A DNA stretch of 64,000 nucleotides. It comes from a phage. The translations under genes were made by a program, and so were the position numbers. The stretch lies in sequence record PZ452610.1, one strand, 5' to 3'. The notes under the pieces are model-generated. The model had not been told where the DNA came from. It was given only the letters and a program-made list of their open reading frames with translations, and did no database searches. Shown piece after piece: positions 5,421 through 9,667 of this stretch. How positions within the stretch are numbered: the first letter of the stretch is position 1; every line of letters starts with the position of its first letter.

Positions 5421-5885
5421 TTATTTAATTTGTTTAGCAGACCAGATACGGTCTTTAATAAGTTTTTGGATATCTTCAACATACTCAAGGCTATGAGCGT
5501 GAGGATTATCTTTGAAGCTATGTGCTCGTGCCAGTTTCTGGCCTTCTGTTTTGATTACTAAAAGCTCTTTAAGAATTGCTTCATACTTAGAAATAATTCC
5601 TTTGGCGATATTTTTTTCTTGAGCTGCTTTAGGGTCTGTTTTTGGCGCAGGTGCTTTACCTGTAGCTTTCTGGAACAATTCACCTGATGCAGCTAGGCTT
5701 TTAAAAACTCGGCTAACAGTATTAGCATTAGTAAAACCTTCGGCTTTAAAATCTCTAATAAAACGGAAACGTTCTTCATCAGAGGCGTCTTTGTAAGAAT
5801 ATTTACCTGCTTGAATTGCTGCAATCGCAGCGGCTTTTACATCTGAACTAGATTGTTCAGTCAAAAATTCAGCGTATGATTTCAT
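5421..5885 (-). CDS. putative capsid-packaged internal protein (CTS-like N-terminus)
   Basis: N-terminus MKSYAEFLTE resembles T4 internal-protein capsid targeting sequence MKTYQEFIAE with LxE cleavage site; basic 154 aa. Confidence 0.55.
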   Translation of the reverse strand: MKSYAEFLTEQSSSDVKAAAIAAIQAGKYSYKDASDEERFRFIRDFKAEGFTNANTVSRVFKSLAASGELFQKATGKAPAPKTDPKAAQEKNIAKGIISKYEAILKELLVIKTEGQKLARAHSFKDNPHAHSLEYVEDIQKLIKDRIWSAKQIK

Positions 5886-5930
5886 GTTGCTTTTCCTAAG
5901 TTAATTAACTTATCTATTTATTATTATGCC

Positions 5931-5957
5931 AAAAAGCCCCGACCTTTCGGAAGGGGC
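5931..5957 (-). terminator. rho-independent terminator
   Basis: GCCCC-gacctttcggaa-GGGGC hairpin; TTTTT on minus strand. Confidence 0.6.
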
Positions 5958-6269
5958 TAAGCCTTGCGGCAACCTTGTCGGGGTTCCACCTGCTAAGGCA
6001 AGTGTTTGTACGAAACGCCGGGATTCGAACCCGGTTATTAAGCAGTTGACGCTACTCAATATTTTTAAAAGGCCATATCTCGACCATATCCGAACGTTCC
6101 GTCAAAAACGCTACTCGGCTTACGGCAAAGATATTTCCTCGAATCGATAATTCTGTGCGCCGTTTCTGCTGTGATGTAAGGGGATATTAACAAATCGTAA
6201 AGATTTATTAAGACCAGTCCTTACTCAGGGAACATCAGTCCGACGACTTGCCGGTAGCGACCCGGCTTC
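5958..6269 (-). ncRNA. non-coding structured region with tRNA-like T-arm hairpin (possible small stable RNA or tRNA remnant)
   Basis: No credible ORF; minus-sense CCGGG-TTCGAAT-CCCGG canonical T-arm at 6016..6032 but no canonical cloverleaf; bounded by terminator. Confidence 0.3.
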
Positions 6270-6614
6270 TTATTTTGACATATCATCAATTTGCTCTCGA
6301 CGCCGACGCCATAGATTAATCGCTTCATTAACACATTCGGCGTTTGGTATATGACGGCAATAATATAATGATTCGCGTTTCTGGAACCGATGTTGCAATG
6401 GAATTTCGTTTAAAAGGTCTTTACGGTCAAAGTATTCAAAACCGGTTAACCCAGAACGGTTTTTAAGAAACTTCCAATGTCCGAATTAATTTTGAAAATA
6501 AACATAATCAGCATGTTGATATAACGAATTAATCAACCGGTCGGAAATAACTGTTTCACGTTCGTTAAAATAAAACGTTAAATCATGAACTACCAGATAA
6601 ACATTGCCTTTCAT
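6270..6614 (-). pseudogene. ORF interrupted by in-frame TAA (41 codons, stop at 6488..6486, then 72 sense codons)
   Basis: Same frame read through by eye: MKGNVYLVVHDLTF...YFQN*FGHWKFLKNRSG...DDMSK; second part has no ATG start. Confidence 0.45.
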
Positions 6615-6632: not shown

Positions 6633-6709
<77 letters not shown>

Positions 6710-6712
6710 GAT

Positions 6713-6789
6713 TGGTGACCCAGACCAGATTCGAACTGGTAACCTTTCCCTTATGAGGGGACTGCTGCTAACCATTGAGCTACAGGGCC
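6713..6789 (-). tRNA. tRNA with CAU anticodon (Met or Ile-type)
   Basis: Canonical T-arm ACCAG-TTCGAAT-CTGGT, anticodon loop CUCAUAA, encoded CCA; acceptor and D stems have mismatches. Confidence 0.5.
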
Positions 6790-6850: not shown

Positions 6851-6868
6851 AATAATAACACATAATTT

Positions 6869-7384
6869 TTAAAGCAAATCAATCATTTTAACAGTCGGCA
6901 AAACGATTTCTTCTTCAATATAAGCAAATTCAACACATTCAACTACACGCAAGAAATCATAATCATAATATTCAGAAGCATGGCCAAGAATATCAATGAG
7001 ACCTTCTGATACTAAATATCCGTTCTCACGGAACAGGTCAAATACACGTGATTCGTCTTCTTCAGATTTATTACCAAGGTCAACTTCAATATCAAAGACC
7101 TTTTTAATGAATTCTGGATAAAGATGGTCTGAGAACAGTCCTTCAACCAGATATTCGTAGATAATAAGCGAGCAATCACTGAATGGTGTATTACCACAGT
7201 AACGTTCAGCTTTAGTGCTAGAATGACTACTCTTAAATTTCTTCAAGAGATATTTAAACTGTTGGAGCTCATGCTCTTCTACACCAAATAATGTTTTGGT
7301 TTTATAGCTGTCGCCGTCATTTTCCGAAGTAGTGACATCAATTACGTAACCCTTAGGAATTGTACTACCTAAACAAATATTCAT
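6869..7384 (-). CDS. hypothetical protein
   Basis: 171 aa, ATG start; last gene of a 4-gene coupled operon. Confidence 0.55.
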   Translation of the reverse strand: MNICLGSTIPKGYVIDVTTSENDGDSYKTKTLFGVEEHELQQFKYLLKKFKSSHSSTKAERYCGNTPFSDCSLIIYEYLVEGLFSDHLYPEFIKKVFDIEVDLGNKSEEDESRVFDLFRENGYLVSEGLIDILGHASEYYDYDFLRVVECVEFAYIEEEIVLPTVKMIDLL

Positions 7385-7388
7385 TTAC

Positions 7389-7679
7389 TCACCGTACCAT
7401 ATTAATGTAGTTATATTCAATGCAACGTAATTTCAAAGGGTTCTTGAAAATATCATATTCAAGAGGGCCTGATTCAGTTTCAATAAAGAAATCAAAATTA
7501 ACTGTGTTAAATTTATTGTCTTCACAGAGTAATTTAACCTGTGAAGATGAACGGTCGATATAAACCTTTTCAACCTCAAAGTTAGTCAGAATACCGTAGT
7601 CATCGACTAGTGCTTTAGCTGCACGTTGGTCGCTTTCATATCCATTCTCAACGGATTTTACCTTAGCATAAAGAATCAT
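7389..7679 (-). CDS. hypothetical protein
   Basis: 96 aa; ATG overlaps stop of upstream ORF (ATGA). Confidence 0.55.
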   Translation of the reverse strand: MILYAKVKSVENGYESDQRAAKALVDDYGILTNFEVEKVYIDRSSSQVKLLCEDNKFNTVNFDFFIETESGPLEYDIFKNPLKLRCIEYNYINMVR

Positions 7680-8038
7680 GAATGTTCCACCACTTCAAAG
7701 GTATGAGCATCAACAATATGGTACCAGTCAAAATTTTCTTCCGCGTTTTTATAAATTTCGCGAAGAGCCTCAACAGTTTTTCCTGTAGCAACAAGGTCGT
7801 CAATACCGCCAAGAGGATAACAGTCGTAACCGGCAAACAGAATGAAATTAATAGTTTCTGTAGGGGCCGGATGCAGTGTACCATTGTCATCGACTACTTC
7901 AAAGAACATATAACCAGGCGATTTAGATTTAATCCAAGCCCATGCTTGAGCTGCTGAATCAAATGGTCTGCGTATCAAACGACAATCAGGGTCTTTAGAA
8001 GGATTTGCTTCAAAATCCGCATATACGTGATATTTCAT
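7676..8038 (-). CDS. hypothetical protein
   Basis: Track start is TTG at 8071; preferred ATG 8038 (MKYHVYADF...) with AAGGTGAG RBS right after upstream stop. Confidence 0.55.
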   Translation of the reverse strand: MKYHVYADFEANPSKDPDCRLIRRPFDSAAQAWAWIKSKSPGYMFFEVVDDNGTLHPAPTETINFILFAGYDCYPLGGIDDLVATGKTVEALREIYKNAEENFDWYHIVDAHTFEVVEHS

Positions 8039-8039
8039 T

Positions 8040-8225
8040 TTACTCACCTTTTGCAATTTTATCCATAACAATAGCGATTAAACCGATTAGAAATGCTACT
8101 ACCAATGAGATAGAATTTTCAGTTGTTGTCAGTAGTCCGCAAATGAATCCTACAAACATCGAAAAACTAAAAGCCATTGAAGCAATTACTACAGCAACAT
8201 TACGAATCAGTTCAGCGCGTTTCAT
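8040..8225 (-). CDS. small membrane protein
   Basis: 61 aa, two hydrophobic segments; promoter cassette 8249..8285 upstream. Confidence 0.5.
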   Translation of the reverse strand: MKRAELIRNVAVVIASMAFSFSMFVGFICGLLTTTENSISLVVAFLIGLIAIVMDKIAKGE

Positions 8226-8248
8226 TTTATTATCCTCTCATGTTTTGA

Positions 8249-8285
8249 TAGGACTACTATAACATAGTCCTATCATCATGTAAAC
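8249..8285 (-). promoter_or_regulatory. early-type promoter with palindromic stem-loop (PeSL-like)
   Basis: gataggactactataacatagtcctatc perfect palindrome; minus GTTTAC -35 and TATAGT -10 with 18-nt spacer. Confidence 0.55.
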
Positions 8286-8287
8286 TA

Positions 8288-8551
8288 TTAAATACCAGCT
8301 TCGCGTTTAACATAATCGACGTAAGCTTGGATAGCTTTCTTGCTGGTAATTTTTACCTGGCCACGACCATTGCCTTCTTTAGAGTTTTTCTTAACAACTA
8401 CATTACCATCTTTAACACCCCATACATGGACGTAAGTACCGATGTTTCGGTCGTAGAACATTGCATGGTCATTGTTGTAAGAGAATGATTCATAGTTCTC
8501 TGTCAAAGCAAAAGATTCGGATTCTGCGATAAATTCTTTATACGTTTTCAT
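8288..8551 (-). CDS. internal protein (capsid targeting sequence MKTYKEFIAE)
   Basis: N-terminus matches T4 IP capsid-targeting sequence with LxE/IAE cleavage context; 87 aa. Confidence 0.7.
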   Translation of the reverse strand: MKTYKEFIAESESFALTENYESFSYNNDHAMFYDRNIGTYVHVWGVKDGNVVVKKNSKEGNGRGQVKITSKKAIQAYVDYVKREAGI

Positions 8552-8574
8552 TTATTTTTCCGTTTGGTTGTTTT

Positions 8575-8613
8575 GATAGGACTACTATAACATAGCCCTA
8601 TCAAGATGTAAAC
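8575..8613 (-). promoter_or_regulatory. early-type promoter with palindromic stem-loop (PeSL-like)
   Basis: ttgataggactactataacatagccctatc plus gtaaac. Confidence 0.5.
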
Positions 8614-8616
8614 TAC

Positions 8617-8904
8617 TTACAGAAGAGTTTTTGCAATAATTTTAAGCTGAGCTACAGAAATATGCTTAGCTTTAAACAGTGCGGTCTCTTCAGCCGGAGA
8701 GATAACAATAGTAGCGCCATCTTTCTTAGCAGACCATCCATCCCCTAAGTAAACAGTACCTTTTACTTCTTCGCCGTCAACCAGACTAATCATTGGTTTA
8801 CCCTCACGTCCTTTATTTGCTTTAATAACTTCGGAAGTAAGGGTTGCTTCGGTCAGAGTAGAAACGTTAGCAACAGGTGATATAAATTCTTTATAGGTTT
8901 TCAT
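8617..8904 (-). CDS. internal protein (capsid targeting sequence MKTYKEFI)
   Basis: N-terminal CTS-like MKTYKEFISP...LTE; 95 aa; ipII/ipIII position next to 57B. Confidence 0.7.
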   Translation of the reverse strand: MKTYKEFISPVANVSTLTEATLTSEVIKANKGREGKPMISLVDGEEVKGTVYLGDGWSAKKDGATIVISPAEETALFKAKHISVAQLKIIAKTLL

Positions 8905-8930
8905 TTTATTTCCTTGAGGTTGTTTATTTG

Positions 8931-8969
8931 ATAGGATGATAGTATCACACCATCATACTTATGTAAACT
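8931..8969 (-). promoter_or_regulatory. early-type promoter cassette
   Basis: gataggatgatagtatcac plus gtaaac; near-identical to element at 57003..57041. Confidence 0.5.
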
Positions 8970-8981
8970 GTTTTGTGAAAA

Positions 8982-9667
<686 letters not shown>

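Follow-up and report, generated by a model that had tools for sequence, protein, structure and literature searches.

The gene cluster and its coding status

We analyzed a 64,000-nucleotide stretch of a phage genome (sequence record PZ452610.1; hereafter the window) and focus on a cluster of four open reading frames (ORFs) on its minus strand, at positions 6869-8225. Taken together, the evidence presented below makes it probable that this cluster is the Mosigvirus version of a T4-type early accessory cassette, consisting of trna.4, trna.3, trna.2 and a gene of the ORF151c family, and that its genes are independent modules which together make up the 5' part of a tRNA and stable-RNA transcription unit. 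Over the 2.4 kb spanning the cluster, identity is 100% to Escherichia coli O157 typing phage 3 (Mosigvirus; KP869101/NC_041863) and 92-96% to many other Mosigviruses. From the promoter-proximal end, the four ORFs are:

ORF 1: 8040-8225, minus strand, 61 amino acids (aa), orthologue of T4 trna.4, predicted small membrane protein
ORF 2: 7676-8038, minus strand, 120 aa, orthologue of T4 trna.3, acidic, two-domain protein
ORF 3: 7389-7679, minus strand, 96 aa, orthologue of T4 trna.2, acidic protein
ORF 4: 6869-7384, minus strand, 171 aa, RB69 ORF151c-family protein (phrog_2290), absent from T4

The original prediction, made from the DNA sequence, had placed four ORFs at exactly these coordinates, and RefSeq NC_041863 carries the same four as gp099-gp102, all named hypothetical proteins. 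The overlapping or abutting junctions that it described are also present: ORF 1 and ORF 2 are joined by GAG-TAA-A-ATG, ORF 2 and ORF 3 by an ATGA overlap, and ORF 3 and ORF 4 by TGA-GTAA-ATG. A Shine-Dalgarno (SD) sequence precedes each of the four starts (GAGG, GGTGAG, GGTGG and GGTGAG, respectively), and those at the junctions lie within the preceding gene. Against phage 308Ecol101PP, the ratio of nonsynonymous to synonymous substitution rates (dN/dS) is 0-0.19 for all four genes, as expected under purifying selection. Since, in addition, each of the four proteins matches a PHROG family and homologues are counted in the hundreds, we regard ORFs 1-4 as real genes. Their place between the internal-protein genes and the tRNAs, again as predicted, reproduces the synteny of T4 (ipI, then the cluster, then the tRNA genes).

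Three T4 orthologues and a fourth gene that T4 has lost

By BLASTP, the product of ORF 1 is 84% identical to T4 Trna.4 (E 7e-36), that of ORF 2 is 39% identical to Trna.3 (E 5e-27) and that of ORF 3 is 86% identical to Trna.2 (E 8e-55); the T4 proteins are NP_049748/47/46 (UniProt P13322-P13324). In T4 the gene order, all on the same strand, is 57B, ipI, trna.4 (61 aa), trna.3 (136 aa), trna.2 (95 aa) and then the tRNAs, and the position and order of the trio are likewise kept in phages JS98, SA21RB, CIP9 and S16. Because sequence identity and synteny agree, ORFs 1-3 are orthologous to T4 trna.4, trna.3 and trna.2, and the statement in the original prediction that none of the four proteins resembles a T4 protein has to be withdrawn for these three. 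The T4 trna genes were sequenced in 1985, the names tRNA.4/.3/.2 are already annotated in RB69, JS98, JS10 and others, and the gene cluster itself is already known, with annotations in RB69 and T4 as well as in this phage. The correspondence with the T4 cluster covers gene order, strand, position, sizes and the presence of a T4-early-type promoter upstream. In contrast to T4, a fourth gene follows trna.2 here, an extra internal-protein-like ORF precedes the cluster, and Trna.3 is a strongly diverged allele without a 7-residue insert in its C-terminal domain. In T4, early RNA and early protein are recorded for trna.2 and trna.3, and early RNA for trna.4 (PMC9697503 supplement); moreover, the three genes are classed as non-essential by transposon insertion (23/25, 39/40 and 16/17 sites; HIDEN-SEQ supplement). 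Our literature search for trna.2, trna.3 and trna.4 found them in supplements only, with no mention in main texts.

The trio is heterogeneous in character. Trna.4 (ORF 1; phrog_1692) has two hydrophobic helices in a hydropathy scan, at residues ~9-31 and ~36-56, is predicted to be a small membrane hairpin protein with two transmembrane (TM) segments, and shows a dN/dS of 0. Trna.3, Trna.2 and the ORF 4 protein are all acidic, with isoelectric points (pI) of 4.5-4.8. In Trna.3, at least three sequence types of N-terminal domain are found on a single C-terminal domain that is highly conserved across genera (motif NF-LF-G..P-GG..DL..LR..W..I..T); in the Mosigvirus form found here, the C-terminal domain has itself diverged and is seven residues shorter. 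In Salmonella phage S16 the C-terminal domain stands alone as a 70-aa ORF, with an unrelated 68-aa ORF before it. Identity to Trna.3 has a bimodal distribution: 128 records reach at least 90% and 616 stay below 60%. The nonsynonymous divergence (dN) of this phage from Tequatrovirus is 0.53 for Trna.3 vs 0.07-0.13 for Trna.4, Trna.2, ORF 4, IPI and 57B, the flanks of Trna.3 having 0.10-0.13. An IDDLVATGKT motif made a type I phosphoribosyltransferase one candidate for Trna.3, and NCBIfam models gave weak hits of 21 residues at E 0.03-0.2, with cut-offs above 125 bits; we rejected this reading because the TG-T part of the motif is missing in T4, JS98 and other homologues. The protein, at 120 aa, is also below the size of a phosphoribosyltransferase fold. 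Trna.2 (ORF 3; phrog_2023) carries the motifs ENGY, I-RSS, NSVNF-F and EYDIF-N. Relatives of Trna.3 and Trna.2 bear the precomputed Pfam labels PF26894 and PF27001, respectively, which are newer than the Pfam copy that we scanned. The sole fused form of Trna.2 that we saw is a 173-aa ORF of two contigs (L129, 4179-4700; L130, 4764-5285), in which a C-terminal Trna.2-like domain follows an unrelated N-terminal extension of 80 residues.

ORF 4 matches the phrog_2290 profile over its full length (E 4.9e-65, residues 1-170) and belongs to the family named ORF151c in the JS98 and 44RR annotation. It shares with the RB69 ORF151c family both the position after trna.2 and the conserved motifs, summarized as (W)ENDGD-Y..GN..YD-DF-RV; all parts of this pattern are present in ORF 4, whose pI is 4.5, save W20. 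At codon 20 (7325-7327) a serine replaces the near-invariant tryptophan of sWENDGD by a single TGG to TCG change, and other coliphage copies have tyrosine, leucine or glycine at this site. The slot after trna.2 is occupied by ORF 4 in Mosigvirus, in JS98 (Dhakavirus) and in some Tequatroviruses, for example SA21RB. Relative to the arrangement here, the T4 deletion takes away ORF 4 and about the last nine codons of trna.2, which are rewritten, and joins the remainder to the tRNA promoter. This deletion is polymorphic within the species Tequatrovirus ime09, ime09 being without and SA21RB with ORF 4. The variable tryptophan site, along with the loss of the gene from T4, suggests that constraint on ORF 4 is relaxed in phages of E. 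coli. The family is far bigger than its annotation implies: an exhaustive profile search returned 836 clusters at 50% identity, jumbo phages included, almost all of them single-domain proteins of 140-190 aa, and it has neither a Pfam entry nor a solved analogue. A Pfam scan of 100 diverse relatives of ORF 4 detected no domain and no fusion. Likewise, Pfam, NCBIfam and PADLOC scans of the four cluster proteins gave nothing above noise (PADLOC had no hits at E<=1), PDB profile searches with the three soluble families returned only matches at E>0.1 (an RPA32 winged helix, SafD and FliJ), and structure and profile searches yielded no recognised fold or family. A further search for homologous proteins turned up close relatives alone, also when run with a concatenated profile.

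Tight junctions, co-occurrence and the question of a complex

The original prediction took the tight coupling of the four genes as a sign of a stoichiometric complex, in which coupling would yield equimolar subunits. To such a complex of all four proteins we attach a very low probability. The overlapping or abutting junctions with their SD sequences and the single promoter do speak in its favour, and so does the fact that all four genes are collinear in 279 records from Mosigvirus, Dhakavirus and some Tequatrovirus. The junctions, however, are ordinary for this genome. Among same-strand pairs of coding sequences in the surrounding 28 kb, with tight defined as an overlap or a gap of at most 4 nt, 18/38 pairs are tight; without the three of the cluster the figure is 15/35 (43%), so that three in a row have a p^3 of 0.08. 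Further runs of three to four tight junctions occur nearby, and junctions of the same tightness link the functionally unrelated genes for deoxynucleoside monophosphate kinase, 57A and 57B. Since tight junctions are the genomic norm, tight spacing says little about a complex.

The distribution of the genes points the same way. In tblastn searches of each protein against 50,697 phage records, ORFs 1-4 were found in 779, 750, 800 and 562 records, respectively, and the host range of ORF 4 differs from that of the others, with many Klebsiella and Aeromonas phages. With collinearity scored as coverage of at least 80% of a concatenated query at one place, the concatenate of ORFs 1-3 is collinear in 707/826 records, and that of ORFs 3-4 in 279/1067. 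ORFs 1-3 occur without ORF 4 in T4 and many Tequatroviruses. Other natural variants have lost Trna.3 (IME340 and Pu-Krd-SF7) or Trna.2 (PSD2001 and relatives, in which ORF 4 comes directly after Trna.3), and extra ORFs lie between Trna.4 and Trna.3 in CIP9, phi1_146055 and S16. Conversely, phages of Klebsiella, Enterobacter, Aeromonas and Proteus, and jumbo phages, carry ORF 4 without the trio, and a profile search found no homologue of the trio within 4-5 kb of it in KpV477, PG7, 44RR2.8t, SJ_PmiM, the 337-kb PHA46 or P19. We extended this to an IMG/VR sample of 80 ORF 4 loci, which form 50 clusters at 60% identity: the ORF 4 family itself is the only one common to more than 10 of the 50, so no conserved protein partner emerges. 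In the 39 clusters that are not T4-like, that is, those with no homologue of 57A, 57B, gene 1 or Trna.4 nearby, ORF 4 is solitary and has no recurrent protein neighbour. Karamvirus-like loci have Trna.4 near ORF 4, with Trna.3 and Trna.2 missing, and Trna.2 is solitary in Vequintavirinae and in jumbo phages and contigs. Thus, for each gene there is some lineage that has it without the others, which makes a fixed four-protein complex unlikely, and co-occurrence across phages is incomplete; genes found separately were what the original prediction had named as speaking against it, and this is largely what the searches returned. The polymorphism of ORF 4 within one species (ime09 vs SA21RB) argues in the same direction. 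Moreover, Trna.3 (39% identity to T4) and its flanks (~85%) have evolved discordantly and are therefore unlike co-evolving subunits.

A narrower partnership would be confined to the trio: the two-TM Trna.4 would anchor or regulate its soluble partners, Trna.3 and Trna.2, at the inner membrane, while ORF 4 would be an unrelated passenger. We consider this unlikely, although less so than the complex of four. The three genes are collinear in those 707/826 records (Tequatrovirus, Mosigvirus, Dhakavirus, Kanagawavirus, Gelderlandvirus and others), their order is invariant and their junctions are tight in several genera; yet this co-occurrence is confined to one related clade and could reflect inheritance alone. 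Phages that lack Trna.3 or Trna.2, the ORFs inserted between Trna.4 and Trna.3, the solo occurrence of Trna.2 outside the T4-likes and of Trna.4 without the other two in Karamvirus-like loci all tell against a trio acting together, as do the divergence of Trna.3, which its partners do not match, and the fact that each gene is individually non-essential in T4. Independent modules remain, in our view, the better reading of the cluster.

An early promoter of the PeSL type and a unit that probably extends into the tRNAs

The region that precedes ORF 1 has the following feature:

8241-8287, minus strand: promoter-early stem-loop (PeSL)-type element, an early promoter overlapping a palindrome with a 12-bp stem (GATAGGACTA..TAGTCCTATC), from promoter scan, repeat and fold

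The promoter, at 8284-8256, is of the sigma70/T4-early type, TTTACA-N17-TATAGT with an extended TG, with its -35 box at 8284-8279 and its -10 box at 8261-8256; in the promoter scan it is near consensus, matching 10/12 positions plus the TG. The palindrome forms a stem-loop with an RNA dG of -20.6 kcal/mol (z -6.35 vs shuffles). As the original prediction proposed, a single early promoter, within a palindrome, is the only strong promoter-like site before the cluster, and scans inside the cluster found no comparable promoter and no noteworthy terminator-like hairpin. The palindrome is, however, not peculiar to this cluster: the 47-nt repeat to which it belongs is present three times, at 8241-8287 (before the cluster), at 8569-8615 (before the next ORF) and at 8924-8970 (before ipI). 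Two of the copies fold well (dG -20.6 and -18.0, z -6.4 and -4.9), and the third is weaker. PeSL cassettes are known from the hyperplastic regions of T4-type phages (Arbiol et al. 2010, PMC2839356; Comeau et al. 2014, PMC4122927), and as a multi-copy early promoter with a stable stem-loop beside small ORFs the element at 8241-8287 fits their definition. In common with them it is a repeated intergenic element that joins a strong sigma70-like early promoter (TTTACW-N17-TAYWAT for T4/PST) to a stable hairpin next to small ORFs that are non-essential, and the SD sequence and start codon of the next gene lie at its 3' end. Unlike them, it serves four genes, not one ORFan; also, its hairpin overlaps the -10 box and is followed by no U-run, so that any terminator activity is putative. 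The synonymous divergence (dS) from phage 308Ecol101PP (L002), likewise a Mosigvirus, is 0-0.015 for 57B and ipI, 0.10 for Trna.4 and 0.20-0.27 for Trna.3, Trna.2 and ORF 4. This sharp shift around 8040-8620 hints at a recent recombination boundary near the PeSL element or Trna.4.

Downstream of ORF 4, the same strand carries the following features:

6852-6875, minus strand: middle promoter of the MotA type belonging to the tRNA cluster, GCTT-N14-TATTAT, across the ORF 4 stop codon, read from the sequence
6713-6789, minus strand: tRNA-Met (CAU), 79 nt past ORF 4 (ARAGORN; Rfam tRNA, 54 bits)
6633-6709, minus strand: tRNA-Arg (UCU) (ARAGORN; Rfam tRNA, 71 bits)
5926-6275, minus strand: homologues of rnaD and rnaC (species 2 and 1) with 3' flank, 92% identical over 351 nt to T4 (L003, 5174-4826)
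5937-5952, minus strand: hairpin with U-run resembling an intrinsic terminator (terminator scans)

T4 and SA21RB carry the same MotA-type motif at the corresponding position, ahead of the tRNA cluster, and the annotation there calls it a T4 middle promoter. The Rfam scan returned the two tRNAs only, having no family that detects rnaC or rnaD, and these were found by BLAST to T4 instead; the ~360 nt between tRNA-Arg and the rnaD/rnaC block hold only short decayed ORFs (annotated gp270, 42 aa, and others). The hairpin at 5952-5937 is the first terminator-like site downstream of the early promoter on the minus strand, and probably marks the end of the transcription unit. For T4, the summary in PMC2330249 of the work of Broida and Abelson (1985) describes a middle promoter immediately before the tRNA cluster and one primary transcript that passes through all the tRNAs and ends past the species 1 RNA gene. 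The arrangement here shares with the T4 tRNA/species 1-2 RNA operon the middle promoter before the first tRNA, the rnaD/rnaC block and a terminator after it; it differs in having two tRNAs (Met-CAU and Arg-UCU) where T4 has eight, and in having no segB homing endonuclease gene. As earlier described, the T4 operon did not count the upstream ORFs as part of it. Since no terminator comes earlier, and in view of the description of the T4 transcript, the four ORFs would be the early portion of the tRNA/stable-RNA unit that codes for protein, at its 5' end. The proposal of the original prediction that the four genes form a single operon is thus sound as to the one promoter, the lack of an internal promoter or terminator and the SD junctions, and too narrow as to its extent, as the unit would continue into the tRNAs and rnaD/rnaC.

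Possible association of the ORF 4 and Trna.2 families with tRNA arrays

Homologues of ORF 4 show an unusual frequency of neighbouring tRNA genes. Among the 80 IMG/VR loci with ORF 4, a tRNA lies at most 5 kb away in 39, at most 2 kb away in 34 and at most 1 kb away in 25, and every tRNA in these loci is on the strand of ORF 4. After dereplication, a tRNA lies within 2 kb in 23/50 clusters and in 13/39 of those that are not T4-like. Several of the gaps between tRNA and ORF 4 measure 9-90 bp (9-34 bp in the unrelated contigs L054, L072, L074 and L084), and in KpV477 and PG7 the ORF 4 homologue sits inside a tRNA array. About half of the ORF 4 clusters, on the other hand, have no tRNA within 5 kb. 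The 13/39 has a P of 7e-5 at a background of 10% and of 0.04 at 20%, both backgrounds being assumed and not taken from a matched control family; for this reason, and because hyperplastic tRNA regions are rich in ORFs, the link between ORF 4 and tRNAs is suggestive only. Independently, Trna.2 tends the same way. Its homologues lie within arrays of 11-12 tRNAs in the jumbo contigs L127 and L128 (357-371 kb), without other genes of the cluster, and in contig L125 a homologue is 5 bp from a tRNA-Met. In Vequintavirinae (SSE121, BIS47, Iguana and IMG/VR relatives), the sole Trna.2 homologue is found directly or one gene before the gene for tRNA nucleotidyltransferase (the CCA-adding enzyme), at loci that have no tRNA gene within 3-5 kb (L015, 3028-4581; L016/L017, 4001-5813; L120-L124).

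These observations raise the possibility that Trna.2 and the ORF151c protein are dedicated helpers of tRNA arrays, co-transcribed with them for that reason and acting in tRNA processing, CCA maturation, stabilization or shielding from anticodon nucleases. We hold this to be doubtful, if somewhat less so than the partnership of the trio. Beyond the strand agreement, the short gaps, the array members of KpV477 and PG7 and the placement of Trna.2 in arrays or beside the nucleotidyltransferase gene, the ORF 4 family has a near-invariant acidic loop, E-N-D-G-D, and an invariant arginine, which could form a metal or active site. Weighing on the other side, the background of proximity lacks a matched control, roughly every second ORF 4 cluster lacks a nearby tRNA, T4 and many relatives manage without ORF 4, and both proteins are acidic, which is unusual among RNA binders. 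Our searches gave no similarity to RNA-binding or RNA-processing folds, and for tRNA-processing, repair and modification enzymes (CCA-adding enzyme, Pnk/Rnl, RNase P/Z and TilS-like) no likeness in sequence or fold was found. In its stronger form, according to which Trna.2 (PF27001) and ORF151c would be previously unrecognised families of tRNA-array accessory proteins acting on the phage tRNA pool, ORF151c with a new fold and with E-N-D-G-D as a metal-binding loop, the proposal is a shade more doubtful still. Of all that concerns the cluster, only the association of the two families with tRNA arrays could be new. A role now ascribed to phage tRNAs is to counteract immunity that targets tRNAs, which makes proteins travelling with them reasonable candidates for a part in counter-immunity. 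As a separate observation, ARAGORN reports a 'tRNA-Pyl' (CUA, of the amber-suppressor type) at 4916-4992 of L084, a 116-kb viral contig, 9 bp upstream of its ORF 4 homologue.

The anti-defence neighbourhood

The cluster lies directly downstream, on the same strand, of homologues of 57B/Acb1 and ipI, which are 85% and 88% identical to T4. T4 57B is Acb1, a nuclease directed against the cyclic-oligonucleotide-based anti-phage signalling system (CBASS), and the Acb1-ipI pair has been described in an anti-defence island (Hobbs et al. 2022, PMC9117128); internal proteins (IPs) inhibit restriction of the GmrSD type (PMC12373910). In Bas37, a different gene at the ipI locus blocks McrBC. With the two proven anti-defence genes, Acb1 and IPI, as neighbours, some of the four proteins could plausibly, to judge by their position, serve in counter-defence. 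The four genes would then extend the Acb1-IPI island, each inhibiting a different host immune system, and the nearness of the tRNAs would be hitch-hiking in recombination-prone hyperplastic DNA. Likeness to the island consists in the shared strand, the early variable region and the immediate downstream position. Unlike its known members, however, the four proteins have no anti-defence homology in Pfam, NCBIfam or PADLOC scans, and PADLOC and Pfam gave no profile match to catalogued families of anti-phage defence or anti-defence. We therefore put this extension of the island forward tentatively; it is still improbable taken alone, although less so than the other specific roles.

Some nearby genes deserve mention in their own right. 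The 57B homologue at 8982-9437 (minus strand; 85% to T4) is annotated 'RNA ligase' or 'cyclic phosphodiesterase', which is outdated given that T4 57B is the cyclic-oligonucleotide nuclease Acb1. Between ipI and the cluster, at 8288-8551 on the minus strand, an 87-aa ORF (phrog_13302) starts with MKTYKEFIAE, as compared with MKTYKEFIS in IPI, and a 30-nt repeat covers the start codons of both genes (8529-8558 vs 8882-8911, 90%). Judging from this start, the ORF probably encodes an additional injected internal protein targeted to the capsid, and as such is a candidate restriction inhibitor, comparable to Bas37_0260 at the same locus. Just past the rnaC terminator, at 5421-5885 on the minus strand, a 154-aa ORF begins with MKSYAEFLTEQ, which resembles the capsid-targeting signal of internal proteins; its homologues recur in other T4-like loci.

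Interpretation

We propose the following sequence of events. The host sigma70 polymerase would start at the early promoter at 8284-8256, in the PeSL-type element, and, since each start has its own SD sequence in the preceding gene, ribosomes could re-initiate at each ORF. Early transcripts would continue through tRNA-Met, tRNA-Arg, rnaD and rnaC to the hairpin at 5952-5937, and later the MotA-type promoter at the ORF 4 stop codon would drive the RNA genes alone. Their distribution among phages suggests that the four products are separable, dispensable modules and form no fixed complex. Trna.4 would be a two-TM membrane peptide, and Trna.3 a soluble two-domain protein which, as the rapid change of its N-terminal domain suggests, may bind a variable target in the host or its defences. 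For Trna.2 and the ORF151c protein, the likeliest role, itself of low probability, would be one that concerns how the phage tRNA pool is expressed, matured or protected.

Several points weigh against this interpretation. No fold or experiment gives any of the four proteins a function, and early read-through into the tRNAs is deduced from the missing terminator. The strict order and tight junctions of the trio in 707 records would also fit a functional partnership. With regard to the tRNA association, the regions concerned are hyperplastic and rich in small ORFs, so that the true background may lie well above 10%, and ancient synteny may link some of the jumbo-phage loci, which would then not be independent. 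Finally, ORF 4 of this phage, with serine for tryptophan, may be functionally weakened. Among the specific roles, counter-defence ranks first, although only tentatively, followed by an action of Trna.2 and ORF 4 on the tRNA pool, then by a partnership of the trio and, far behind, by the four-protein complex; none of them reaches the probability that we give to a cassette of independent modules at the head of the tRNA/stable-RNA unit.

For the T4-type phages, the analysis corrects the record, in that the cluster consists of T4 genes and of four separable modules, and it delimits a transcription unit made up of the PeSL early promoter, the four ORFs, the MotA promoter, two tRNAs, rnaD/rnaC and a terminator. 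It also provides a testable lead, namely that in unrelated large phages two families of this unit are associated with tRNA arrays. Should the link to tRNAs or that to anti-defence prove true, it would give a first function to proteins of many hundreds of phage genomes in the collection that we searched.

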